From: a virus
Taxonomy: Duplodnaviria > Caudoviricetes
Length of the DNA stretch: 64,000 nucleotides
Reading direction: 5' to 3' (one strand)
Virus record (IMG/VR): IMGVR_UViG_3300014039_000032
Span: 6,209-70,208 of that record
In this document: positions 9,365-60,315 of the stretch, piece after piece
Position numbering within the stretch: position 1 is the stretch's first letter
How the letters are laid out: the number at the start of each line of letters is the position of its first letter
Position numbers and translations under genes: made by a program
Notes under the pieces: generated by a model
The model's input: the letters and a program-made list of their open reading frames with translations, nothing else
Told to the model about the DNA's origin: nothing
The model's database searches: none

Positions 9365-9928
9365 ATGGAAGAAATCTGGAAAGATGTTGTTGGATATGAG
9401 GGTTTATACGAGGTAAGTAATCTTGGTAATGTGCGTAGCTTGTTTCGGTACAAGAAACAACTCAAGTGGAACGTCTTGAGTTCTGGCTATGCGACTGTTC
9501 AACTTTTCAAAGAAAAAGTTGGTACAAGATTGCTTGTACATCGACTTGTCGCCAAGGCATTCTTACCCAATCCAGATGGATTACCGGTCGTCAACCACAA
9601 AGACGAGAACAAATTAAATAATAGCGCGGACAATCTTGAGTGGTGTACTCAACAGTACAACTTAGCTTATAACGACGGGCATAGAAAAAGAGCCGACAAC
9701 ACGCGCTGGTTCTATGATGAAATGAGTGTAAGGTTCAAAGAAAATAATCCCGCTATAAAATTGCCAGTCGTTCAGATGAGTTTGTCTGGCGAATTTATAA
9801 AAGAATGGCCAAGCGCCAAAGATGCAGTTGTTGCGCTTGGCTATAAATCAGACCATATCTGTGAATGTTGCAAAGGGAAACGAGAGACATCTAATGGATT
9901 TAGATGGAAATATAAGGAGGTAATTTAA
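9365..9928 (+). CDS. Free-standing NUMOD4-HNH-NUMOD1 homing endonuclease
   Basis: EIWKDVVGYEGLYEVSNLGNVRS (NUMOD4), VHRLVA..F, VNHKDENKLNN..NLEWC (HNH), C-terminal SA..A..LG..I..CCKG (NUMOD1). Confidence 0.9.
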   Translation: MEEIWKDVVGYEGLYEVSNLGNVRSLFRYKKQLKWNVLSSGYATVQLFKEKVGTRLLVHRLVAKAFLPNPDGLPVVNHKDENKLNNSADNLEWCTQQYNLAYNDGHRKRADNTRWFYDEMSVRFKENNPAIKLPVVQMSLSGEFIKEWPSAKDAVVALGYKSDHICECCKGKRETSNGFRWKYKEVI

Positions 9929-16999: not shown

Positions 17000-17206
17000 A
17001 TGACAGTAGCCGAACTTATCTGGAAGCTCTTGTACTATCCATACGATATGGAGGTCAAGGTCTGCGTAAGGCCGAGAGTTGAACCAGCAGCAAGTGTAGG
17101 AGAGAGTGTCGACATCGACACAAACAAAACATCAGTAGTTATCTACGGCGATAAGCCCTATGATATGTTTAAGGAGGTATCAGCAATTGCAAGTTACAAA
17201 GCGTGA
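17000..17206 (+). CDS. Small hypothetical protein
   Basis: AAGGAGG SD; 68 aa. Confidence 0.55.
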   Translation: MTVAELIWKLLYYPYDMEVKVCVRPRVEPAASVGESVDIDTNKTSVVIYGDKPYDMFKEVSAIASYKA

Positions 17207-18416
17207 TGGCCGTAAGGTCGAATTTGATTCAGACAAGATTGTCAAGGCAATCACCAAGGCGTTTGTCGAGGTTTATCCTGATGGCGTGACAAACGAGATG
17301 CAGGAATGCGCTCATAAGATTGCCGGTGAGGTTGCGGCGAAAGACGGCATGACGGTTGAAGAAATTCAGGATGCCGTAGTTCGCAAGCTCATGGCAAGCA
17401 AGTGGAAAGACGTGGCCAAGACATACGTTGAATATCGCTATTTGCATCAGATGGCGCGTAGCCAGTATGCCCAGCTCATGGACGCCATTGCCGAGAAGCT
17501 GGAGGCAAGAGATGTTAAGAACCAGAACGCCAATGTTGACGAGCATAGCTTTGGCGGTCGCGTAGGCGAGGCCAGCAGCGTAGTCAATAAGAAGTACGCA
17601 CTGGAATATCTGGTGTCGCCTATGGCCAAGGCAAACCATAACAACAACGAGGTCTATATTCACGACCTTGACAGTTATGCGGTTGGAATGCACAACTGCT
17701 TGTCGATTCCGTTTGATGACCTGTTAGCCAATGGATTTAACACTCGCCAGACAGATGTTCGCCCTGCTCAGAGCATCAACACGGCGTTCCAGCTTGTGGC
17801 GGTCATCTTCCAGCTCCAGAGCCTTCAGCAGTTTGGCGGTGTAAGTGCAACACATCTCGACTGGACGATGGTTCCTTATGTGAGAAAGAGCTTTTGGAAA
17901 CATTTCAAAGATGGCCTTGTTTATATCCAGAAAGAACCTCGCCCTACCGATGACCACTTTAACCCTGATTGTCCCATTGACGCAGAAATCTATAAAGTAG
18001 CTGACAAAGCGTATGAGTATGCTATTGATATGACAACCAAGGAGTGCTATCAAGCCGTTGAAGGTATGTACCACAACCTCAATACGCTCCAGAGCCGTTC
18101 TGGCAATCAGCTGCCGTTCAGCTCTATCAACTATGGTACGTGCACATTGCCTGAAGGCCGCATGGTCATCAAGGCATTGCTCGATGTTTCCATTAAGGGT
18201 ATGGGCAAGCTTCACAAGACCAGCATCTTCCCTTGCGGCATCTTCCAATGCATGAACGGCGTGAATCGGCATGAAGGCGAACCCAATTATGACCTGTTCA
18301 GACTGGCACTCAAGTCTACGAGTCTGCGGCTTTACCCCAACTATGCCAACGTCGATTGGTCTGGCAATGCTGGCTATGACCGCAATGACCCAAAGACGTA
18401 TTTCAGCACTATGGGT
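17187..18416 (+). CDS. nrdD: Anaerobic ribonucleoside-triphosphate reductase, exon 1 (ATP cone to ...YFSTMG)
   Basis: TTG after AAGGAGG; ATP cone VTKRDG; ENANVD-like KNQNANVD, HNC, FSSINYG; stops at MG of the MGCRT motif. Confidence 0.92.
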
Positions 18417-19240
18417 TAAGAAAACACCACAGCCCATATAAAACTTCGTGAACCTGTGAAACGCAGGGTGTGGAATCAGCGCAAAGTTCGAGCAGGATAA
18501 TGGCTCGTTAATGATTCTGCTAACAGGGAAGGCTTGCGTGAGAACGCAAGATAATCGCTGTGCTAAAACATAATCAAACAAAATTTTAAAATGAGGAGGT
18601 GACAATGGATGTTCAGAAAATATAAAGGATTTTTGGTTGATGATAATTTCAACTTTTATAATGCTCGTACTGGCAATATGGTTACGCCGTTTGTCGGCAG
18701 TGATGGATATTTTCAAGTAACTCGGTCAAGAGCCGATGGTAGCCACTATCATATTCGAGTTCATGTTGCTCTCGCCACGCTGTTTATTCCAAATCCAAAC
18801 GGATATAGATATGTAAATCACAAAGATTCTAATAAATTAAACAACTCTCTTGAAAATCTTGAATGGTGTACCAATAGCTATAACGTGCAACATGGTTGGG
18901 ATAGTGGCAACCGGACACACAAGAATAGAACAAAAGTTAGAGTTATCGGCCAAGACGGAAATGAAAAAATCTTTGATTCTATTCGACAATGTGGTGAAGC
19001 GCTCCATCTCGACCGCCATAAGATTGCAAGAATTCTAAAGGGCGAGTTTGTAAACCACTACAATTATCGATTTGATTATGTTATGTGAAGAGACTATCGA
19101 AAGGGTATCTGATGTGTAATTTGGGTTGCATCAGAGAGTAACCGAGTAGAGTACCCAACAGGTGAAATTCCTGTTGCTGGGAAGCGCGAAGTACTAACCA
19201 AATAGTAAAGATATAGTCCAACGATGTGAAAGCATCGTTG
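18417..19240 (+). mobile_element. Group I intron 1 of nrdD (IA2-like)
   Basis: 5' exon ends in U, P1 ATGGGT/GCCCAT, P7 GACTA/TAGTC (AAGATATAGTCC at about 19208), omega G 19240; splicing restores MG|CRT. Confidence 0.9.
18609..19088 (+). CDS. Intron-encoded HNH homing endonuclease
   Basis: RVHVALATLF, VNHKDSNKLNNSLENLEWC; GAGGAGG SD. Confidence 0.88.
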   Translation: MFRKYKGFLVDDNFNFYNARTGNMVTPFVGSDGYFQVTRSRADGSHYHIRVHVALATLFIPNPNGYRYVNHKDSNKLNNSLENLEWCTNSYNVQHGWDSGNRTHKNRTKVRVIGQDGNEKIFDSIRQCGEALHLDRHKIARILKGEFVNHYNYRFDYVM

Positions 19241-19744
19241 TGTAGAACCGCAAATGGTTGGGATATCAACGGCTTTGGCCAACTCAAGGATGGTCGCGGC
19301 AACATCTGCCCTGTGACCATCATCATGCCTACGCTTGCTATGGAGGCCGAGGAGGCGGTCGATACTTTCACCGAGGACAACCAGCCCGATGTAGTTGAGA
19401 TGTTTATGCAACTGCTTGACAATAAAATCCATGAGGCCAAAGATATGCTCATTGAGCGCTTCAACTGGATTTGCTCTCAGAACCCAAACAGCGCCAAGTT
19501 CATGTATGAGAACCATACGATGGCTGGCTATGTGCCGGAAGAGGGTATCCGTTCGGCGCTTAAGCATGGTACGCTCGCCATTGGTCAGCTTGGCCTTGCT
19601 GAGACCCTGCAAATCCTGATTGGCTGTGACCATACAACACCTGAAGGCATGGAGCTTGCTAAGCGTATCGAGCAGCTTTTCAAAGACCGCTGTGCTGAGT
19701 TCAAAGAGCAGGAACATCTGAACTTTGGCGTGTACTATACACCT
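19241..19744 (+). CDS. nrdD: nrdD exon 2 (CRTANG...GVYYTP)
   Basis: GRGNICPVT, GTLAIGQLGLAE; 168 whole codons between the two introns. Confidence 0.9.
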
Positions 19745-20717
19745 AAATTTTCTTGGGTGGCGTAAGTGTGAGCTTACGAATAATTTACCTCACTAAACGG
19801 GCAAGCGTAATAAGCTGGTAAGAGAGGCTAAACCGGAAGGCAAGCTAATCCCGTAGGATAAAAATATTTTTCAAAAGTTAACAATTTGTTCATCACCTAA
19901 CACAAGTTTTTCTGTATAATTAAGGTCAAGAAGGGAGGCCGATTATATGGCTAAAAGAAAACTTGAGAACAAATTGATTTCCCGCAATTCAATATCTGAA
20001 GAACTTCGCAAAATTTCTGATAGTGCCAACGCCTATATCGCGCCGTCTGGCAAGGTTTACTTTGACTATGGTGGCGATATGATGTACTCAGCTAAGACGT
20101 TTGTAAACGCTCACAACGGCTATCTTTACATCAACTTTAAGAGTGTTAGCGGCAAGATGATTCAGCGTAGAGTCCATCGCTTGGTTGCTGAGGCATATTT
20201 GCCAAACCCAAATAACTTGCCGGTTGTTTGCCATATTGATAACGACAAGGCAAATCCAGACCTGTCGAATCTCAAGTGGGGAACAGTATCAAGCAACACC
20301 AAAGAGGCGTTTGATGACGGGTTGGCCAAGAACGATAAGGGTTGGGATGATTCGCAAAGTGTTCCAGTTTGTTGTTTTGATAGTAAAACCAAACAATTCC
20401 TGCGTTGTTACGGTTCTATTTCAGAAGCAAGTCGAGATACTGGCGTAACCAAAACCGGAATCATTTACCAGTGCGATAAGAGGCTAACCAAACGATTCCG
20501 TAAAGGCTTCATCTTCAGATATTTTAGCGATTTTCCTGAAAATATTTTTGTTCTCTAACGACTATCGAAAGCATAAGGCGAAGAAACATCGCCCCAACAA
20601 GCGAGTAGAGTAGGAGCAATCCGAAATGTGAGGGGTCTGCATGGTGGTTGCAGCTATGCAGACCAAGATATAGTCTAATCCCCTTTGCCAAATATCGGGA
20701 AACCGAGGGTATAAATG
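19745..20717 (+). mobile_element. Group I intron 2 of nrdD (IA2-like)
   Basis: P1 ACACCT/GGGTGG, GACTA at about 20560, AAGATATAGTCT at about 20666, omega G 20717; splicing restores YYTP|AENLC. Confidence 0.9.
19947..20558 (+). CDS. Intron-encoded HNH homing endonuclease (NUMOD1 tail)
   Basis: RVHRLVAEAY, VCHIDNDKANPDLSNLKW. Confidence 0.88.
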   Translation: MAKRKLENKLISRNSISEELRKISDSANAYIAPSGKVYFDYGGDMMYSAKTFVNAHNGYLYINFKSVSGKMIQRRVHRLVAEAYLPNPNNLPVVCHIDNDKANPDLSNLKWGTVSSNTKEAFDDGLAKNDKGWDDSQSVPVCCFDSKTKQFLRCYGSISEASRDTGVTKTGIIYQCDKRLTKRFRKGFIFRYFSDFPENIFVL

Positions 20718-21108
20718 GCAGAAAATTTATGCTATACTGCCATGCAGAAGTTCAAGGCGCGTTACGGTGAAATTCCTAATATTTCAGACAAGGAATTCTT
20801 CACCAACAGCATCCACGTTCCTGTGTGGCGCAAGGTCAACCCGATTGAGAAAATCGACATCGAGAGTCAGCTCACAGGATATAGCTCTGCGGGTTGCATC
20901 ACCTATGTTGAGCTTGAATCGAGCGTCAAGCATAACATCGACGGCCTTGAAGCTCTGGTCAACTATGCCATGGATAAAGATATCCCGTACTTTGCCATCA
21001 ACGTGCCGAATGACCTGTGCATGGATTGCGGATATACTGAGGAGATTGGCGATGCTTGCCCCATGTGCGGTAGCAAGCACATCCAGCGGCTCAGAAGAGT
21101 CACGGGGT
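20718..21108 (+). CDS. nrdD: nrdD exon 3 (AENLC...RRVTG plus first base of Y)
   Basis: FTNSIHVP, SAGCITYVE, CMDCG...CPMCG Zn site, RRVTG glycyl-radical motif. Confidence 0.9.
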
Positions 21109-21853
21109 TAACAAACCAGTTGTAAGCCCCTAAATTGTCGTAAATTTGCAACTTCTGCGTTGCAAGGTTCCTTTAATTGGACTCTAACAGGGTCAGAAAT
21201 CAAATAATTATTAAAGGGGTATCAAGAGATGAATAATTCAAACCTTGAGTTTAGAAAAATTAAATCATTGAAATTCTTATACGAAGTCAACGAGAATGGG
21301 ACAATCTTCCGCAATGTCAAGTCAAAGAAGCAGCTCAAAATCAAGCTGGATTACCATCACTCTGAAGCTGGCTACTACGTCACATTTGTTCATCTTGGTG
21401 GCAGAAGCAAAGACAGCAAAATTGTCAGGTGTATGATTCATCGCATCGTGGCGGAATGTTGGCTTGGAGATTGCCCCGAAGGCATGCAAGTCGACCACAT
21501 TGACCGCAATTCACACAATAACGACTGGCGCAACTTGAGATATGTCACCATCAACGAGCAAATGAAAAACCGAGACCATTCAAATATCTCGGCGACTGGT
21601 TCAGAGAATCTTGCTAAAGCAAGAGCCGAAAGAGCTATTGGCGTCGTGGCAATCAGGAACAATGAGCGTCATGAGTTCAAGTCTAAAGCAGATTGCGCAA
21701 GATGGCTTGGCGAGCTATATGGTATTGACCCCGAAAAGATTCGCTGGAGACTTAAACTGTATCGTAAACACGTATATGATTTTGATTTAATTTATCTGAA
21801 TGCAGAGACTGGACACGGCAGCTCTACGGAGCAAGGAACAGTCCGCGAAAGCG
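21109..21853 (+). mobile_element. Group I intron 3 of nrdD
   Basis: P1 GGGGT/GCCCC, P7 GACTG/CAGTC (GCAGAGACTG...AAGGAACAGTCC), omega G 21853; splicing restores RVTG-Y-LT. Confidence 0.85.
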
Positions 21854-21945
21854 ATTTAACTGGTAACTACACCACGGCGTTTAACAAAGGCAAACAGCAG
21901 GAGGTTGAGATGCGCGTAAAGCATGACGAGGTGATGACCGAATGA
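21229..21945 (+). CDS. Intron-encoded HNH endonuclease read through into nrdD exon 4
   Basis: IHRIVAECW, VDHIDRNSHNNDWRNLRY; frame runs through the intron core and shares the last 29 aa and stop of NrdD. Confidence 0.8.
   Translation: MNNSNLEFRKIKSLKFLYEVNENGTIFRNVKSKKQLKIKLDYHHSEAGYYVTFVHLGGRSKDSKIVRCMIHRIVAECWLGDCPEGMQVDHIDRNSHNNDWRNLRYVTINEQMKNRDHSNISATGSENLAKARAERAIGVVAIRNNERHEFKSKADCARWLGELYGIDPEKIRWRLKLYRKHVYDFDLIYLNAETGHGSSTEQGTVRESDLTGNYTTAFNKGKQQEVEMRVKHDEVMTE
21854..21945 (+). CDS. nrdD: nrdD exon 4 (..LTGNYTTAFNKGKQQEVEMRVKH)
   Basis: Canonical NrdD C-terminus FNxGKxxEVxxRVKH. Confidence 0.88.
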
Positions 21946-35229: not shown

Positions 35230-38200
35230 TTAAGTTGCCGCATAGCTTCTCTGCATCGCCATCTGCTTGAGGCCATCAACAAATTGCTGGGCGTTACGCA
35301 CGCTCGGCAGAGAGACATTGGCCACATTCAAGATGGTGTTTCCAGCGCCAGATTTACTTGCAAACCAACGGGGGTCAGAGCCAATCTTCATCAGATTACG
35401 CGTAATGTCAGCAGGGATAATCCCGTCACCTTGATTCAACACGCGCAGCTCAGGCCCTTGTTCGCCAACCATGGCCAAGCCGCCACGGGCAGATGTTGTG
35501 CCGCTGGCATAGCCCATATCCGATAACTTCTTGCGCAACTCTTCATTGCGCTCATGAAGGCGCTTGCGCTCTTCCTCGTCAGCATCAAACCACGCCTGAG
35601 AATTTCGCGCAATCTCGTCCTCCATGCCCATAATCTTGGATTGTTCAGATTTACCAACGCTGCCGCTGAGACTACCGCCAGTCGTATTGTTTCGCCGAGA
35701 CGAACTGGAAGAGCTGGAACTTGTCGAGCCAGAATATCCAGATGTATAGCCGTACTTGTTCTTCAAACGATTCCACATATCCGCCGTGGATTCGCCCTGA
35801 ATGCCAAGCGCTTGCATTTTGGCATTACGTTGACCAATAACGCCTTTAATCCAGTCGTATCCGTAGCCCTTCTTAATTCCCTCTTCGAGGAGTTCGCCAT
35901 AGTCCGTATCTTTATCCCAGAGAGGATTATAAGCATTGACAATGTCAGCCCAAGCCTCTGCATCGCTCGCATAACCTTCGCCGCTACCGGCCCATTCGCC
36001 GGGCTGAACGCCAGAGCCAGAACCATAACCGCCTGAGCCACCACCAAGACCGGCCAAGATGCTATTGTACTGGCTCGCAAAACTCTGGAGGTTGGCCAAG
36101 CGAGTCTGCCAGTTGGCATTTTCTTGCTCGATACCAAACATCTGGTCGGCAAGGAGTTTGTTCTGCTGGTATTCATACTCACTGGTTAGATTGCTCCAAC
36201 CCTCTTTGTATTCCTCCCAACGCGCCTTCTCTTCTTCAAGTGCCGCCGTTTCGTTCTTGCGCAGAGTCTCGATATATTCCTGCTCGGCCTTGAGCGAATC
36301 CTCAATGTACTTCTTGCGGTTCTCGTAATCCTTTTGGCGATAGTACGCATTCAGCTCATTTTGGGATTTGCTTACCTCATCAGCATCGGCTTGATAGACA
36401 AACTGGCCATCCTTGAATACCATCTGCATAGTATTCTTGGCTTTGTCCAACGCCTCAAGTTTCTGCTGTAAAGTAATCTGGTCTTCAACAGCTTCATTCT
36501 GAGCTTCAAGAGCATCAAGTTGTGCCTGAGCACGTTCTTCCGCATCTTCAAGCATCTGGTCGTATTTGTCGTTGATGGAGTCGATTTGGTCTTGCAGTTC
36601 CTCGATTTTGCGAGAGGCGTACTCGACATAATAGTCGATAACGCCCTGCATCATCTGCTTCTGCTCATTTAGAGCATCAGAAACAGAATCAGATACATCA
36701 TCGACAGCGGATTCTGCATCTTTCTTGACCTCTTCGACGGCATCCTTAGCCTCTTCCTTATTCGCTTGAGTTTGCTTAGAGGTAGAAGTGCCACCACCGC
36801 CGCCGCCGCCGCCAGTCGAAGTTACAGTGGTCGGCGTATAGCTGGTCTTGAGAGAATCCCAAAGAGTCTTCGCATATTGCTTCTTGGCCATCGCCATAGC
36901 CTCTTCAGAGGTCTTGGCAAGGCCAGCCCGCATATAACCAGTTGCCGACGTGCGGATTTGGTTGGAAACCGTGGTCTCGTCCATACCAAAAACAGCCGCC
37001 ACAGCTTGAGCAGTATAGCCAGCTTGAAGCGCAAGGGCTTGCAGATTGGCAATCTGGCTCGACACGTCAAGATTGGTATTACCAACTGTGATAATAGCAT
37101 TGGCCAGCTTATCAACAAGCTCGGTGCTGGTTAAGTCGGCTTGGCTCATCACGGCTTGAAGCGCCGACACCTTCTGCCCAGTAGACAGCTCGGTATTGTT
37201 AACGTCAATGATGGCGTCAACAACATATTCCGTCAAAGCGTCGCCAGTCTTCTTGGCCTCTTGACCAGTTTGATACAGTCCGTCAACATAGTTGCTGACG
37301 TAGCTACTGGCAGACGACATAGCCTCTTGAGCATCGGCGAGAGCATAGGTCAACTGCCGCTCACTCTCAGTGGCCGTCATAATGTCTGGGTTTAGGATGT
37401 TGATAGCATCAGCCAAACGGCTTGCTTCAGATGTCGTCTTCTGATAGTCGGCAAGTTGTTCCTCATTCAGCTCATGATTCTTATCAAGCAAAGATTGATA
37501 TTCTCTGAGCTTTTCAATGAGCTTCTGGTAATATTCCTCACCAGTGATAGTTGTTGTAGTTTGCTCAAGACGAGTGCGGCCAGTCTTTCTGTCGGTCTTC
37601 TCTGTGTACGACGTCTCAATCGTACCCGCATTTTCAAGCGTCTGTTTGGCTTGCTTCTTCGCAAGTTCGTTGTATTTGTCAATCTGCGCTTGAAGCTCGG
37701 CGTTTTCCTTTTCAAGAGCATCTTTCTCCGCAAGAATCTCCGGCGTCTTGTCATTCCAAGCCATACCATTGATTTCTTCGAGGCGAGCCTTATTTGTCTC
37801 AAGTTGCTGAGTATCGGATTCAATAGACTCATTAAGTTCGTCAATGCTCTTACGACTGTCCTCAGTTGCTTTCCATAGAGCGCCGCCAATAGCCAATGCC
37901 GCAGCCACCGCAAGAATAACAGGCAAAGCGCCAGACAATAGAGTGGTAAGGCCACTAACAGCCACGCCGCCTTTGCTCATAGCCGCAGCCGTTGCGCTAA
38001 GACCCTTAGTCACAATGCTCGAGAATGTCTTGAATTGATTCGTAACAGCAGGGATAATCTTGGACGCCTGAAGCAACCCGGTAGCGCCCCAGCCAACACC
38101 AGTCAGTAATGTAATCTGCGTGACAATACGGCCAAGGTCTGTATTGGCAAGCTGTAAGAATCCATTGGCTAAGTCCAACACAGCTCCAACCAATTCGTCG

Positions 38201-38937
38201 TCAATGACGTTATTGGCAAGGTCTTGGAAAGTGGCCTTGACCGCCGTGGTCTTAGCTTCAAGACTCTCCATATACGCCGCATTTTCCTGAATGGCAGAAC
38301 CACTGGAATTGAGCGCCGTAGTTGTTGCATCTGTCGCGTGTTCAAAGTTCTGCATAACAGAAGCCAAAACCTTGTACTGGTTTGTGCCCGCAATCGCATC
38401 ACCAAGCGCGACCCGCTCGGCTTCGCTCATGCCATCCCATTTGGGCTTCAGCTCAGACAGGACGTCATAAGTGCTCTTAAGATTACCGTTTGTATCTTCG
38501 ACCTGAATGCCATATTCTTCAAGAGCACCCTGATTTTTGACTATGCGTGATGCGATGGTATTGAGACCGCGCGCGACTTGACTGCTGCGCCCAGTCATAA
38601 TTTCCGTACCAGCCGTCACAAGGCCAATGATTTCCTCAAATTCATTGCCATAGGTTGCCATACCAGCACTGGCAATTTCCATCGCTTGAGACAGGTCGTT
38701 AGTTCCTACCGAGAAATTGTTGGCCACCTCATTGTATGCGTCAATAACATGGGTGGCAAAATCCGCATCTTCGCCAAATGCACGAATTTGCGAAACAATA
38801 GATGACGCGGCATCCTCAGCGCTGACCGCCGTATCCGCTACGTTCTGATATTGTGCCGCAACCTTTGCGAGAGTGGCCGCATCTTCGTCGTTAAATCCAC
38901 TCTTACGGAAGGTTGTCGCCGCTTCAACCATTTCTGA
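35230..38937 (-). CDS. Tape measure protein, exon 2 (SEMVEAA...)
   Basis: TP901-type TMP core (YNEVANNFSVG, GRSSQVARGLNTI), TM segments, long coiled coils. Confidence 0.88.
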   Translation of the reverse strand, partial: SEMVEAATTFRKSGFNDEDAATLAKVAAQYQNVADTAVSAEDAASSIVSQIRAFGEDADFATHVIDAYNEVANNFSVGTNDLSQAMEIASAGMATYGNEFEEIIGLVTAGTEIMTGRSSQVARGLNTIASRIVKNQGALEEYGIQVEDTNGNLKSTYDVLSELKPKWDGMSEAERVALGDAIAGTNQYKVLASVMQNFEHATDATTTALNSSGSAIQENAAYMESLEAKTTAVKATFQDLANNVIDDELVGAVLDLANGFLQLANTDLGRIVTQITLLTGVGWGATGLLQASKIIPAVTNQFKTFSSIVTKGLSATAAAMSKGGVAVSGLTTLLSGALPVILAVAAALAIGGALWKATEDSRKSIDELNESIESDTQQLETNKARLEEINGMAWNDKTPEILAEKDALEKENAELQAQIDKYNELAKKQAKQTLENAGTIETSYTEKTDRKTGRTRLEQTTTTITGEEYYQKLIEKLREYQSLLDKNHELNEEQLADYQKTTSEASRLADAINILNPDIMTATESERQLTYALADAQEAMSSASSYVSNYVDGLYQTGQEAKKTGDALTEYVVDAIIDVNNTELSTGQKVSALQAVMSQADLTSTELVDKLANAIITVGNTNLDVSSQIANLQALALQAGYTAQAVAAVFGMDETTVSNQIRTSATGYMRAGLAKTSEEAMAMAKKQYAKTLWDSLKTSYTPTTVTSTGGGGGGGGTSTSKQTQANKEEAKDAVEEVKKDAESAVDDVSDSVSDALNEQKQMMQGVIDYYVEYASRKIEELQDQIDSINDKYDQMLEDAEERAQAQLDALEAQNEAVEDQITLQQKLEALDKAKNTMQMVFKDGQFVYQADADEVSKSQNELNAYYRQKDYENRKKYIEDSLKAEQEYIETLRKNETAALEEEKARWEEYKEGWSNLTSEYEYQQNKLLADQMFGIEQENANWQTRLANLQSFASQYNSILAGLGGGSGGYGSGSGVQPGEWAGSGEGYASDAEAWADIVNAYNPLWDKDTDYGELLEEGIKKGYGYDWIKGVIGQRNAKMQALGIQGESTADMWNRLKNKYGYTSGYSGSTSSSSSSSSRRNNTTGGSLSGSVGKSEQSKIMGMEDEIARNSQAWFDADEEERKRLHERNEELRKKLSDMGYASGTTSARGGLAMVGEQGPELRVLNQGDGIIPADITRNLMKIGSDPRWFASKSGAGNTILNVANVSLPSVRNAQQFVDGLKQMAMQRSYAAT

Positions 38938-38956
38938 CGTGGTTGTTTAGTCTTGA

Positions 38957-39289
38957 TTATTTTTTCTTTGGGTCATAGATGCCATAGTCATTGTCGTATT
39001 TGTCAAGCGTTTTGACTTCATCAATCATCTTCTGCCGCTCATCTGGGTTGTCCATGCGCTGCTGAGACCCAACAATCATGGCATTCAGAATAGTCCCAAC
39101 GAACGCCCAAATTCCAACGGCAACGCCAAGGTGGTCAGTAGTCGCGCCAAGATACATACACAGCGTGAACCAGATGATATTAAAGATAAAGACACCACCG
39201 GCTTTGCCATGTCCGCGCATACAAGCCCCAGCAATGCCCTTGCAGATACAATAGATGATGCCGACCCACATTCCAATTACCAATACCAT
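38957..39289 (-). CDS. 3-TM membrane protein inside the TMP intron
   Basis: GGAGGT SD 6 nt before ATG; three hydrophobic helices followed by a charged tail; no nuclease motif. Confidence 0.8.
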   Translation of the reverse strand: MVLVIGMWVGIIYCICKGIAGACMRGHGKAGGVFIFNIIWFTLCMYLGATTDHLGVAVGIWAFVGTILNAMIVGSQQRMDNPDERQKMIDEVKTLDKYDNDYGIYDPKKK

Positions 39290-39321
39290 AATTTAACCTC
39301 CAATATTTTTTTGATGGTTAG

Positions 39322-39350
39322 AGTATAGCATAGGAGAAAATATTTGTCAA
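39322..39350 (-). promoter_or_regulatory. sigmaA-type promoter inside the intron
   Basis: TTGACA-N17-TATACT with extended -10 TG. Confidence 0.78.
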
Positions 39351-39686
39351 GACTAAATTTCCGAGAGTTTTCAATTCTCGCCTGAGTACTTCTTCGGCCT
39401 ATATAATTTGGAGGCTCGCCCTGTATACTCGATTGACACACCGCTCATCACGGCTTCGCGCCCAAGCTGCCCTTTTGTCACGGATAGTATATAATATTCG
39501 TGACATAGCGGTTAGGTCTTTCAACCATGCACCATCCTTGCCGTTTTATCGGTTTCCCACATTCACGCTCAGGCTTATCTCATCCTCACGTTGTAGTGAC
39601 AAGGCTCTTCAGGCTTTCAAGGGTTTAGGGGCTGTTCTCAGTGCTGGTTTACCATCCCATCACTCCGGCTCAGACCGATTTGGTTT

Positions 39687-40070
39687 GCCGGTTCGTGCTA
39701 CGGTTTTACCCATCTCTGCGAGATTCTGGACGTAGCTCTCCAGTCCACTTCCACGCAAATCCGAAACTTTCTTAAATTCCGTCATCGCGCTATTCAGCGT
39801 ATATACTTGCTCGACCATGCTGGAAATCGCATCAACGGAACGTCTGAATACCTCATTCATTGCGTTGAATGTCGCTTCAACATCGCCAGCATCTTTATTT
39901 ACTTGCTGTGTTGCGCCAGACATATCATTCAACTCAGCCGTAACCGAGCGAATGCCCTTGCCGTCAACCTTGAACGTGACCTTCTTGGCGGCATTGTTAA
40001 GTTGCGACTGGATATTGTTTAAGTCAAGTACAACTTTCGCAAGAATACTATAATCATTGTTAGAAGCCAT
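39687..40070 (-). CDS. Tape measure protein, exon 1 (MASNND...VARTG)
   Basis: LNSAMTEFKKVSDL is a TP901-TMP N-terminal pattern; the ORF's stop lies inside the intron. Confidence 0.8.
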
Positions 40071-40086
40071 ATCTCACACCCTTTCA

Positions 40087-40593
40087 TTATTTGTGATTTT
40101 GGCTTTGGATGACTGCCCAGCCTATGAGTATAGCCTCGGCTTCGTCATCCTCATTTTTTGTGCTCTTTGGCTTAACCCATGTCAGGTCAAGCCCAAATAT
40201 TTCATTGGCCATACGCACGGCTTTCTCTTTAAGAACATCGCGCTGAAGGCCAGCTCTTGTGCCGTCAAACATCCCAAGCTCACGCCGCCAAACACTCGGC
40301 AACAGGAACGTCGGCTTGAGTCTAAATCCTGCGCAAAGACTTAGAATCATACCTTGTACTGCACCAAGTTTAACAATGGTGAGCTTACCATCCTTCATGG
40401 GCACGTCCTCTGCGTACACCACATCAGGCCGATGCTCTCGGATAATCGCCGCAAGCTCCATGGTTTCAGCCATGACGTTCTCACGCCAATCATCATGTCT
40501 CTCCTTAATAACGCCATGGGCCACAAGTTGCTCGCCATCAAATATCGCCCAACCCGTTGATTTGGTAGAGGCGTCAAGCGATAAAATCTTCAC
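40087..40593 (-). CDS. RuvC-like Holliday junction resolvase
   Basis: ILSLDASTKSTGWA, VYAED, PSVWR, DDEAEAILIG. Confidence 0.8.
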   Translation of the reverse strand: MKILSLDASTKSTGWAIFDGEQLVAHGVIKERHDDWRENVMAETMELAAIIREHRPDVVYAEDVPMKDGKLTIVKLGAVQGMILSLCAGFRLKPTFLLPSVWRRELGMFDGTRAGLQRDVLKEKAVRMANEIFGLDLTWVKPKSTKNEDDEAEAILIGWAVIQSQNHK

Positions 40594-51566: not shown

Positions 51567-52316
51567 TTAATTATTCTCGATGTAATAAGATAGCCCCAAA
51601 TCCTTAAAACGGTCAGGAATCTTGTTTGTTCTCAACCAATTCCGCATAGTTTCATCTTTAACATTATATTTTTTCGCGCAATCTTTTACACAATCAAACA
51701 CAATGCCATCACAAACACATTTTCGTGCGGTTGGATTTTTACCGCCATCATATTTTCCTTTATGAGAGAGAGATAATTTTTCCTTCGTCTCTTTAGATAA
51801 ATGCTTGCCATACATATGGTTTTCTTTGCCCACGTACTTGCCTTTTTTAGCTTCAGACATCTTTTTACGAGATTCTAAAGAATATTTATTGCCTCTTTGG
51901 GCTTCCGCCATTTTTCGTTTGGTTTCATCTGTTCTTTTCTTGCCATAGTTAGGAGACTGCTGGCCAGTTTTCCCATATAAAGGATGGTTCTCACCAGAAC
52001 AGAATTTTAATCTGGCTCTTCGAGCTTTCTCCCAATCTTCAGCAGAAACGTTGTAATGGCGGCCATTTGCATCTACATTTGTGCACATGAAGTGCCAAGC
52101 AATTTGAGCTTCTCTGCACTCTGGGTTTTCCATTGCAAACAATTTATGCGCCTCATAGTGTTCAGTCCCCATTAAATCAATTAGATTTTCTTTATCGTCA
52201 GTCCCACCAAGCGATTTCATCATAATATGATGTCTTTCTTTGTATCCTTTATAATTCTTGTCAACAAAACGCCCTCGCGTGTCTAAAATGTTTTGAATAA
52301 ATTCGTTGTAAGTCAT
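51567..52316 (-). CDS. Free-standing HNH endonuclease with NUMOD3 repeats
   Basis: ERHHIMMKSLGG.D..ENL..L...EH..AH; repeated GKKRTDETKRKM / GKHLSKETKEKLS. Confidence 0.85.
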   Translation of the reverse strand: MTYNEFIQNILDTRGRFVDKNYKGYKERHHIMMKSLGGTDDKENLIDLMGTEHYEAHKLFAMENPECREAQIAWHFMCTNVDANGRHYNVSAEDWEKARRARLKFCSGENHPLYGKTGQQSPNYGKKRTDETKRKMAEAQRGNKYSLESRKKMSEAKKGKYVGKENHMYGKHLSKETKEKLSLSHKGKYDGGKNPTARKCVCDGIVFDCVKDCAKKYNVKDETMRNWLRTNKIPDRFKDLGLSYYIENN

Positions 52317-57705: not shown

Positions 57706-60315
57706 TTATATTCCAAGGGTTTGCGGGTTTTCTCCGTACAAAGTTTTCGGCTTTGGCGCTTCCCAAATTTCCTTGGCTTTCTGACGGTTTGCTACGTCAT
57801 AACACGCCGAGCCGCAATACTTTTGCAGCTCATCGCGCGGCTTGAATCGCTTCCCGCATATTGGACAAATCTTGCCAGTACCCACAAGATTCCGCTCAAG
57901 ATTACGCACGATATCCCATCCAAAGCAAGCCCACAACATCTTCTTGTTGCTGGACTTCTTAACCGTGTAAGCATACGCCACAAGACTATTCACGATATAC
58001 ACCAAATCTTCGCCGCTCACTGCCAAGATTTCTTCACGAACTCGCCGCGAGACATAATCGTCGCCGTCCTTGATGTTGTCCAGCTCATCATTGAATTTTG
58101 AGCGATTTCGTAACCAGTAATTATAAGCCTTGATGACCTCAGAATCCTCGCGGATGGTATAGTCGACATCTTGGTCAATGAGCATACGCCAATCAAATTT
58201 GCCGATGTTTTTGTTGTATTTTACTCTGACATCTGGTATGCTATCAGAGATACGGTTCATCGTTGATTCATTGATCGGATCAACCTGCGTATCGTCCTTA
58301 TCTTTGGCGTAAATGAAAAATTGCGGCACGCTCGACTTGGTATATCGCTTGATAATTTTGTCGATACTCTTTGGACGCTCAGGTAGCCAAAGGGTCTTGG
58401 CGTAGTCAATCACGGCGTTATTCTCAAAGCATAGCCACTTGACTACATCAAGCTGCTCTTGGCCAATCTTGCCACTATTCCAAATCTTCGTGATGTTATT
58501 GGATATCGGCCCGATATTGCCGCCAGTGTAAGCATGAATCATTCCTTGATACATCGACTCCGGCGTAAGCACAGCGGGCTGGGCCTTCTTGAGGTCATAG
58601 GCCAGCGGTCGAATGTCTGTCATGTTGCGTTTGGCAATTTTCGTCAACGTGCGGTCTTTAACGACGAGGCTCTTGTCGCCATCACAATCGAACATAAGGT
58701 ATCGGCTGATAAGGTCGTGCGTCGACGTATAGATACACTTGGTCTCACCAAACCACTTGTCAAGTTCGGCTGTGCGAGTGTTTGTCTTAACTGCCCACTC
58801 TCTGTACAGGTGGGGGGAACGGAGACACGCCAACTCATCACCGTCTCTGTATTGGTTGGTATATACCTCGCCGTCCGCAAGTAAACCACGTGGATTCTGC
58901 TCGCCCTTGAACAGCCACTCGCAAAATGCGTATAAGTCAGGTGAAAGGAACAGGTACTTACCGTTCACGCGCAGCCGTCCGCCTCTCGCTTGCTTAACAA
59001 GACTCTGCTTGGTTTGCTTCAGAATCTCGCGGCTGTAAACATCCTTAAACAGCTCAGGGTAAATCTCAAGTGCCGCTTGCACAGCCGACTTATAACGGTT
59101 GTACGGCGTAGCTCCAAGTAGCCGCATAGTAGTTTGGTAATCCGCGCCAATAGTCTCAATCTCGTCAACCGTGCGCTTGGTCAACCGCTCAATCTCGCCA
59201 TCCGTCATATCGCTGAGAGTCTGAAGCATCTGGTAGTTGATACGGCTCTTAGGGATATACGCCTCCTCGATATTGCAGAAGCTCGCCTCGCAACCATATG
59301 CCTTGAATCGCGCTTTATAGCATTCCCAACTCGCGTAGTATTTACAGAGCTTGAATTGGCTCTTGGTGAAGATATAGCGAATATCCTCAAGCACAACATT
59401 GTGCCGCTGACCGTAGATATCTGTGACCCACCATTGGTCAGGCGTACATTTTTCGCGCAAGAATTTGTCGAACGGAAAGTAGACCATCAAACCCTTGACC
59501 CACGGCAAACGAACCATGCGCGTCGGCTTGTCAAGCATGATACCGCAGCCATCCATGTGGGGGATAGGCGTATCTGTCAACTCGCGCTTGATTTCATACG
59601 TCATGCCGTCAATGTGGTCAACCTCACCAGCCACCAGTGTCTCAAAATCGTCAACCACAATGCTCTTGTCGATGTCAAAATCTTGCCAAACATCCGTAGC
59701 CGAATTCATCAGAGCCAGATACGCAAGGTACTTGTTGCAATTCATGCCGCTTTGACGGTTGATGTCCTCGATGGTTAGACCGCACATCAGACGTTGCTCT
59801 ACGCGGAGAAATGCGGACTCGCGGATGAACACGGCCCTCTTGGTGCGGATTTGGCCAGCAGAAGCAGTGAGGAAAATGTAGTGCTCGCCATCCCAATCAA
59901 ATCCTTGCTTAACAAGATTCTCAAAGACCTGAAAGAAAAATACGTTGACGATAATCAAATCCTTGGTAAGCTGGAACGTCTTGAGGTTCAAAGCTCGCGT
60001 CAAGCTCGACTCAAACAGGTTGATGACGTTGCGGTCTTTGAGTACCTCAGGATTGAGCTGCCGCGTAATTCCCTCAGCCGCCCGCTGGTCAAGAATCCCG
60101 CTCAACCTTTCTTTATGCTTGGCGAGACAGCGGTTATACGCCGATACGCGCCATTGGCCATCCCAAGCATTTGTCTTGCCGTCTTTGAGCCGCGTCTTTA
60201 ATTTTGCTCGCGCCGAGTACATCTTGACCATGCGCCGATGAATCTCTTGTTCATCTGGCTGGTAGAATATGCTCGTATCGCATGAATAGAGATATACTTG
60301 ATTCGTCAAACTCAT
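57706..60315 (-). CDS. YonO-type single-subunit DNA-dependent RNA polymerase (two-barrel, RdRP-like)
   Basis: 869 aa; TASAGQIR, MDGCG, RLPWVKG, LRSPH and catalytic FDCDGD; heads the late operon as in SPbeta. Confidence 0.8.
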   Translation of the reverse strand: MSLTNQVYLYSCDTSIFYQPDEQEIHRRMVKMYSARAKLKTRLKDGKTNAWDGQWRVSAYNRCLAKHKERLSGILDQRAAEGITRQLNPEVLKDRNVINLFESSLTRALNLKTFQLTKDLIIVNVFFFQVFENLVKQGFDWDGEHYIFLTASAGQIRTKRAVFIRESAFLRVEQRLMCGLTIEDINRQSGMNCNKYLAYLALMNSATDVWQDFDIDKSIVVDDFETLVAGEVDHIDGMTYEIKRELTDTPIPHMDGCGIMLDKPTRMVRLPWVKGLMVYFPFDKFLREKCTPDQWWVTDIYGQRHNVVLEDIRYIFTKSQFKLCKYYASWECYKARFKAYGCEASFCNIEEAYIPKSRINYQMLQTLSDMTDGEIERLTKRTVDEIETIGADYQTTMRLLGATPYNRYKSAVQAALEIYPELFKDVYSREILKQTKQSLVKQARGGRLRVNGKYLFLSPDLYAFCEWLFKGEQNPRGLLADGEVYTNQYRDGDELACLRSPHLYREWAVKTNTRTAELDKWFGETKCIYTSTHDLISRYLMFDCDGDKSLVVKDRTLTKIAKRNMTDIRPLAYDLKKAQPAVLTPESMYQGMIHAYTGGNIGPISNNITKIWNSGKIGQEQLDVVKWLCFENNAVIDYAKTLWLPERPKSIDKIIKRYTKSSVPQFFIYAKDKDDTQVDPINESTMNRISDSIPDVRVKYNKNIGKFDWRMLIDQDVDYTIREDSEVIKAYNYWLRNRSKFNDELDNIKDGDDYVSRRVREEILAVSGEDLVYIVNSLVAYAYTVKKSSNKKMLWACFGWDIVRNLERNLVGTGKICPICGKRFKPRDELQKYCGSACYDVANRQKAKEIWEAPKPKTLYGENPQTLGI

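Follow-up and report, generated by a model that had tools for sequence, protein, structure and literature searches.

In Vibrio phage ICP1, the gene for the tape-measure protein (TMP) is split into four exons by three introns, the splicing of which was shown by RNA-seq and RT-PCR, and TMP is described as a gene that is often interrupted (Barth, Dunham and Seed 2023, PMC10448857). Besides, introns lie in capsid and tail genes of Cluster J mycobacteriophages, where splicing is reported (PMC3706429). In the present work, we analysed a stretch of 64,000 nt (hereafter the window) from a 70.2-kb viral record in IMG/VR (IMGVR_UViG_3300014039_000032). Judged from the sequence, positions 39686..38938 on its minus strand very probably represent a genuine, divergent group I intron in the TMP gene of an uncultured gut phage of ~70 kb, predicted to be spliced at 39687|38937. 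Both this kind of intron and TMP as its target are already known from ICP1.

The locus resembles ICP1 in that TMP is the host gene of group I introns and in that the third ICP1 intron carries a P5b module 92% identical to that of the window over 48 nt. However, the ICP1 introns score 29-78 bits with the Rfam model RF00028, their core sequences are canonical, they contain insertions of the P7.1/P7.2 type, and an HNH homing endonuclease is encoded in the middle one, whereas the intron in the window has no RF00028 score, lacks P7.1/P7.2 and carries a predicted membrane-protein gene as cargo. The insertion sites, too, fall in unrelated parts of different TMP families. The introns in TMP of Streptococcus phage Str-PAP-1, in a capsid gene of Bacillus phage SP-15 and in IMG/VR locus L036 share with the window the P4-P6 architecture, the P5a/P5b module, a GNRA hairpin and P5c, yet their P4 strands agree with the consensus, P7 is followed by P7.1/P7.2, and they contain endonuclease ORFs. 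The Cluster J introns are similar in residing in virion structural genes, while hosts and sequences are unrelated (PMC3706429). With the Tetrahymena and Azoarcus ribozymes, the window shares the P1 guide pairing, the terminal G, P10, the P3/P7 pseudoknot and an A-rich J4/5.

A 749-nt insert divides the TMP frame

On the minus strand, the TMP frame is interrupted after 39687 and picked up again at 38937. Exon 1 (39687..40070) comprises 128 codons and ends in VARTG, and its frame extends eight codons into the insert before reaching a stop at 39662..39660. The frame of exon 2 (35230..38937; 1235 codons plus stop) is open from 38946, reads SEMVEAAT from 38937 and terminates at 35230. Taking out the 749 nt from 39686 to 38938 and joining 39687 to 38937 yields a coding length of 384 + 3705 nt and a TMP of 1363 aa with a single terminal stop. 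The frame break, the point of resumption and the 1363-aa product had all been proposed by an earlier, sequence-only reading of this DNA, and they were borne out by comparison with Enterocloster phage PMBT24, whose continuous TMP can be aligned over the junction with no gap; its residues 1-143 match exon 1, and those from 143 onward match exon 2. Enterocloster phages such as PMBT24 are the closest annotated phages, and TMP is uninterrupted there. Directly upstream of TMP, at 40087-40593 (minus strand), lies a gene for a RuvC-like Holliday junction resolvase; PMBT24 has the same gene order.

The length of the insert is not a multiple of three, stops occur in the exon frame, and the last base is a G (38938). 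Its length and in-frame stops do not fit an intein, and neither an Rfam group II match nor a reverse transcriptase ORF, as would be expected of a group II intron, was found in the insert. Were the insert instead a group I intron that has decayed and lost its ability to splice, the phage would either produce TMP as two polypeptides, one of 128 aa and one of about 1233 aa that begins with the ATG at 38931, or be defective. Against separate polypeptides speaks that no GGAGG-type ribosome-binding site was seen, on reading by eye, directly upstream of this first ATG of exon 2, which makes it unlikely that exon 2 is translated on its own. Besides, the insert cuts a Pfam domain (PF10145) in two, as the match begins in exon 2 and its first profile position is 17 of 201.

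A scan of viral contigs for a near-identical intron-less allele with the predicted ligated junction returned no match. Contigs assembled from four public RNA or possible-RNA runs likewise contained no 39687|38937 joint, and such contigs cannot show that splicing is absent. In one type of public-run contig, 38946..39343 was replaced by 255 other letters, fitting the shorter cargo alleles of the relatives described below.

Relatives share the insertion point and a constrained core

Two IMG/VR contigs contain the same insert at 88-91% identity, a 14-mer scan combined with BLAST filtering added eight further diverged copies (72-85% identity), and a 19-mer scan of metagenome contigs yielded 18 more loci. 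Removal of duplicates left 22 distinct core sequences, 21 of these relatives being full-length. The insertion point is identical in all 22, namely after the VARTG or VGRTG codon of TMP homologues. A scan for the intron core in genome contigs gave no match, so that no host was identified. The similarity of TMP to that of Enterocloster phages points to Lachnospiraceae of the pig or human gut as likely hosts of this phage group.

Within the window's own clade (six sequences), 14.6% of the columns of the intron core vary, or about 7% when one 28-nt indel is left aside, as compared with 22.7% in exon 1 and 25.2% in the cargo ORF. The non-coding RNA is thus more constrained than the coding sequence around it. 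Changes are concentrated at third codon positions both in exon 1 (50/68) and in the cargo ORF (60/84), which identifies the latter as a real protein gene. These figures bear on whether the insert might be a decayed, non-splicing intron. The divergent core, the blindness of RF00028 to the insert and the C-G pair at the cleavage site of this clade are what such decay could look like, yet the insert is retained in over 20 diverged phage contigs, in which the exons are intact and show purifying selection at the codon level, and variation in the core is below that in the exons. Moreover, P1, including its exon strand, is maintained by compensatory changes (see below), which is sensible only if P1 is used. 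We therefore consider loss of splicing highly unlikely and take the insert to be, in all probability, a group I intron that splices.

An internal guide matches both exon ends

An internal guide sequence lies at 39665..39674 (minus strand) close to the start of the insert. Its 3' half, 39669..39665, pairs with the last five nucleotides of exon 1 (39691..39687) to form P1, and its 5' half, 39674..39670, pairs with the first five of exon 2 (38937..38933) to form P10, such that the guide as a whole (39674..39665) complements the ligated exon ends at 10/10 positions. Both the terminal G (omega G, 38938) and the five exon 2 nucleotides of P10 are kept in the window and in 21/21 full-length relatives.

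The cleavage-site pair is the canonical U.G wobble in the Tetrahymena and Azoarcus ribozymes as well as in 17 of the 22 relatives, in which the last base of exon 1 is U, but C-G in the window. The C at 39687, which pairs with the guide as C-G, occurs in the window and four members of its clade and reflects a synonymous change between GGC and GGT. Hence, the C at the 5' splice site that the sequence-only reading had pointed out is real and limited to the window's clade, and the window departs from the U.G cleavage-site rule of group I introns, though a P1 helix is present. The same reading had also considered a C.A pairing, which did not hold: as a partner of the exon 1 end it would use 39679..39674, a strand that is invariant, whereas it is 39669..39665 that compensates the exon changes of three relatives. 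Two synonymous exon changes arose independently and are both matched in the guide, one from ACC to ACU (two relatives) and one from ACC to ACG (one relative); the corresponding pair of P1 (columns 17/41) is CG in 19, UA in two and GC in one of the 22 relatives. Guide 39669..39665 is therefore the true partner of exon 1.

The first 12 nt of the P1 loop (39675-39686, minus strand) are invariant in 22/22 relatives although they are unpaired in our model. They may take part in a tertiary contact or pair alternatively with the exon.

Fifteen helices and their covariation

We placed 15 helices on the alignment of the 22 distinct relatives and then counted pairs. Following P1, the P2 hairpin (39640..39664, minus strand, as for all helices below) has an 8-bp stem with six of its eight pairs changing on both sides. 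P3 pairs 39632..39629 with 39421..39418, encloses P4-P6 and forms a pseudoknot with P7; one of its pairs (columns 77/287) is CG in 12 and UA in 10 of the 22 relatives, across both types of P2. P4 (39623..39618 with 39466..39461) is invariant and includes two U.U oppositions, and P5 (39614..39612 with 39471..39469) consists of 3 bp, is likewise invariant and leads into a three-way arrangement of P5a, P5b and P5c, all of which covary among the 22 relatives. P6 (39436..39459) is built from two outer and three inner base pairs, two pairs being compensated. The invariant P7 (39430..39426 with 39388..39384) encloses the 3' strand of P3 together with P8 (39415..39412 with 39400..39397), which is compensated, and is followed by the P9 hairpin (39362..39380), where compensation affects three of five pairs. 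In this way, every element of the group I order P3-P4-P5-P5'-P4'-P6-P6'-P7-P3'-P8-P8'-P7' has its place. The topology is that of a group I intron, with the P3/P7 pseudoknot, A-rich J3/4 and J4/5, and P4 directly continuous with P6; J6/7 has one base more than in L036.

Most helices of the sequence-only reading, namely P3, P4, P7, P8 and P9, are present in the sequence and fit the relatives. Its P5, by contrast, had to be abandoned, as the 3' strand falls within an optional palindromic hairpin in the P5 extension (39476..39505) that is missing from 14/22 relatives. The proposal that P7 is a compensated variant was correct: pairs 1 and 2 are G-C and A-U as in the consensus, and pair 3 is flipped with compensation. 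Such a variant is unremarkable, given that related, Rfam-positive introns show several other compensated versions of P7.

The optional hairpin itself is a nearly perfect palindrome with 15-nt arms and occurs in 8/22 relatives belonging to different clades. It is absent from close relatives of each carrier clade, which suggests repeated gain, loss or exchange.

Read by resemblance to the consensus J3/4-P4-J4/5 string of introns that carry the P5b module, 39632..39629 would be P4 and 39623..39619 would be P5. We rejected this register, as it would leave no P3, as the only other candidate strand is used by the covariation of P2, and as 39632..39629 covaries perfectly with 39421..39418. An alignment with L036 in the shifted register agrees with P3 at 39632..39629 and P4 at 39623..39618.

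Standard pairs fill 96.5% of the cells, as compared with 23-42% when partners are slid by 1-3 columns, a control in which the structure is favoured since it was partly derived from the same alignment on which it was counted. Pairs altered on both sides amount to 25/68 versus 0-4 with slid partners, and this double-change count is far above the bias from the shared alignment. The paired share, the number of cells changed on both sides and the covariation score were each reached by 0/500 shuffles. Compensated changes are found in P1, P2, P3, P5a, P5b, P5c, P6, P8 and P9, while P4, P5 and P7 never vary and hence carry no covariation support in either direction. Folded as a single sequence, the insert reaches an energy within the usual range (z = -0.77).

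Many natural group I introns require proteins in vivo, and the short P3 (4 bp), the weak P4 with its U.U oppositions and the C-G cleavage-site pair could demand stabilisation. One might therefore picture a group I-like RNA that depends on a cofactor protein of phage or host, with the exons joined at the same junction. Yet the large P5abc-like extension with its GNRA loops and conserved P5b module is usually a stabiliser of the core in place of a protein, and no maturase-like ORF was found in the intron. To a dependence of this sort we assign only a very small probability.

Homology to accepted introns despite silence of the Rfam model

A covariance-model search, which the sequence-only reading had put forward as a check, went against it: RF00028 gave no match on the insert even at E<=10, be it in the whole window or in stretches of 1.2 kb and 371 nt, nor did it in seven relatives. 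RF00028, with a gathering score of 50 bits, is a curated detector rather than a defining property of group I introns, and it generally performs poorly on introns of phages. The same searches do find the introns of ICP1, Str-PAP-1, SP-15 and L141, and the likely nrdD introns of the window reach just 20.7 and 12 bits. The insert diverges in every one of the classical conserved core sequences.

Homology is evident from the P4-P6 domain instead. A stretch of 37-48 nt (39606..39560) including the P5b module (core module 39595..39559) is 84-92% identical to group I introns of three annotated phages, i.e. the third TMP intron of ICP1 (38.9 bits with RF00028), the capsid-gene intron of SP-15 (38.0 bits) and the TMP intron of Str-PAP-1 (82.1 bits). 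In these Rfam-positive or spliced introns the module occupies the same place within the P4-P6 domain as in the window, namely the P5 extension, and it was found in 37 IMG/VR loci. From J3/4 through P4, P5, the P5 extension, P4' and P6 to J6/7, L036 and the window can be aligned position by position, and this alignment fixes the names of the helices. The lineage lacks P7.1/P7.2 despite its IA2-like P4-P6 domain. Together with the anatomy of the insert and the covariation, this homology lends good support to the earlier proposal of a group I intron predicted to be spliced at GGC|TCA.

One of the IMG/VR relatives, L141, possesses a second TMP intron in exon 2, a canonical group I intron (about 1169-1442 of the locus, minus strand) with 81.4 bits against RF00028 and a GIY-YIG-like ORF. 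Within this group of phages, TMP seems to be a hot spot for introns. The statement in the sequence-only reading that introns are less common in phage structural genes is outdated for TMP, as both this second intron and the description of TMP as a frequently interrupted gene (PMC10448857) illustrate.

Further interruptions are seen in nrdD of the window (17160-21945, plus strand), which falls into three pieces with contiguous Pfam profile ranges (2-262, 263-414 and 415-542). It is the inserts between these pieces that give the two low RF00028 scores mentioned above. HNH endonuclease ORFs lie between the pieces at 18609-19088 and 19947-20558, and a further HNH ORF is located at 21229-21945. More free-standing HNH or homing-endonuclease genes are present at 9365-9928 (plus strand) and 51567-52316 (minus strand), so the genome is rich in endonucleases although the TMP intron has none. 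Elsewhere, 57706-60315 (minus strand) encodes a protein of 869 aa that matches PHROG 8308 (unknown function) with E = 1e-250.

A promoter and a predicted membrane-protein gene within P9.1

The 3' portion of the intron is organised around P9.1, an 11-bp long-range stem that loops out the cargo and is present in the 21 full-length relatives, where it is held at 8-12 bp through five sequence versions. Its 5' arm (39347..39357, minus strand; 11 nt) shares bases with the -35 box of the promoter preceding the cargo, and its 3' arm (38946..38956) starts directly after the stop codon of the cargo and ends 8 nt before the 3' splice site. The promoter (39322..39350) is of the sigma-70 type, with 11/12 consensus matches and a TG-extended -10 box, and is kept in all relatives. 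A Shine-Dalgarno site precedes the cargo ORF (38957..39289), which encodes a predicted membrane protein of 110 aa; homologues of 82, 92 or 110 aa exist in all relatives. By our judgement of the sequence, some segments of the protein appear hydrophobic and similar to membrane spans, and its C terminus appears to carry a conserved acidic-aromatic motif. Searches of Pfam, PHROGs, protein homologues and the ESM Atlas returned no match pointing to its family or function. As this 110-aa cargo is the sole ORF of the intron, there is no homing endonuclease in it of the kind that would mark a mobile intron.

A strong promoter of its own, a membrane-protein gene and no homing endonuclease would also befit a cassette consisting of promoter plus gene (a moron) or another mobile element that is not an intron, with TMP being rescued e.g. 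by ribosomal bypass or trans-complementation. Such an element, however, would have no need for a guide matching both exon ends, for a terminal G or for 25 compensated pairs arranged in the group I topology. Known cases of bypass cover much shorter lengths than 749 nt, and conservation is highest in the non-coding 330 nt. This explanation retains next to no credibility in our eyes.

Proposed course of splicing and significance

Drawing on established group I chemistry, we infer the following steps of catalysis. The end of exon 1 would pair with guide 39669..39665 to form P1, whereupon an external guanosine bound in P7 would cleave after 39687. The 5' half of the guide (39674..39670) would then pair with the start of exon 2 as P10, the terminal G at 38938 would move into the G site, and the exons would be ligated as GGC|UCA, giving an mRNA for the TMP of 1363 aa. 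P9.1, by looping out the cargo region of 398 nt, would bring the 3' splice site to the core. As regards the rate, a C-G pair at the cleavage site of the Tetrahymena ribozyme makes undocking of P1 ~80-fold faster (PMC1891724), and by analogy with this weakened docking, the C-G pair of the window's clade may render splicing slower than in its relatives.

How these features fit the life of the phage can be sketched only tentatively, and we consider the following scenario possible yet rather doubtful. The lineage may have become fixed at one TMP site of gut phages, may have lost or never had a homing endonuclease, and may have been kept for its promoter-driven membrane-protein cargo. With the -35 box lying inside the 5' arm of P9.1, the same stretch would serve as promoter in the DNA and as helix in the RNA, such that cargo expression and splicing could interfere with one another, while the C-G pair could slow splicing and thereby tune the supply of TMP. 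That splicing could serve as a checkpoint of virion production, an idea from the sequence-only reading, is speculation.

What sets this lineage apart is that RF00028 does not detect it, that the cleavage-site pair is naturally polymorphic (C-G or U.G), that P7.1/P7.2 are lacking, and that the cargo is not an endonuclease and has its promoter embedded in P9.1. It would provide an example of a phage group I intron that carries a non-endonuclease, promoter-driven gene. Besides, its members form a natural series of near-identical ribozymes that differ in U.G versus C-G and in compensated P1 pairs, which may allow the need for the wobble to be tested in vivo. Annotation pipelines would call TMP at such loci as two genes plus a hypothetical protein, with the standard Rfam model remaining silent. 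Recognising the lineage would correct the TMP gene models, and hence the inference of tail length, in gut phages represented by more than 20 contigs.
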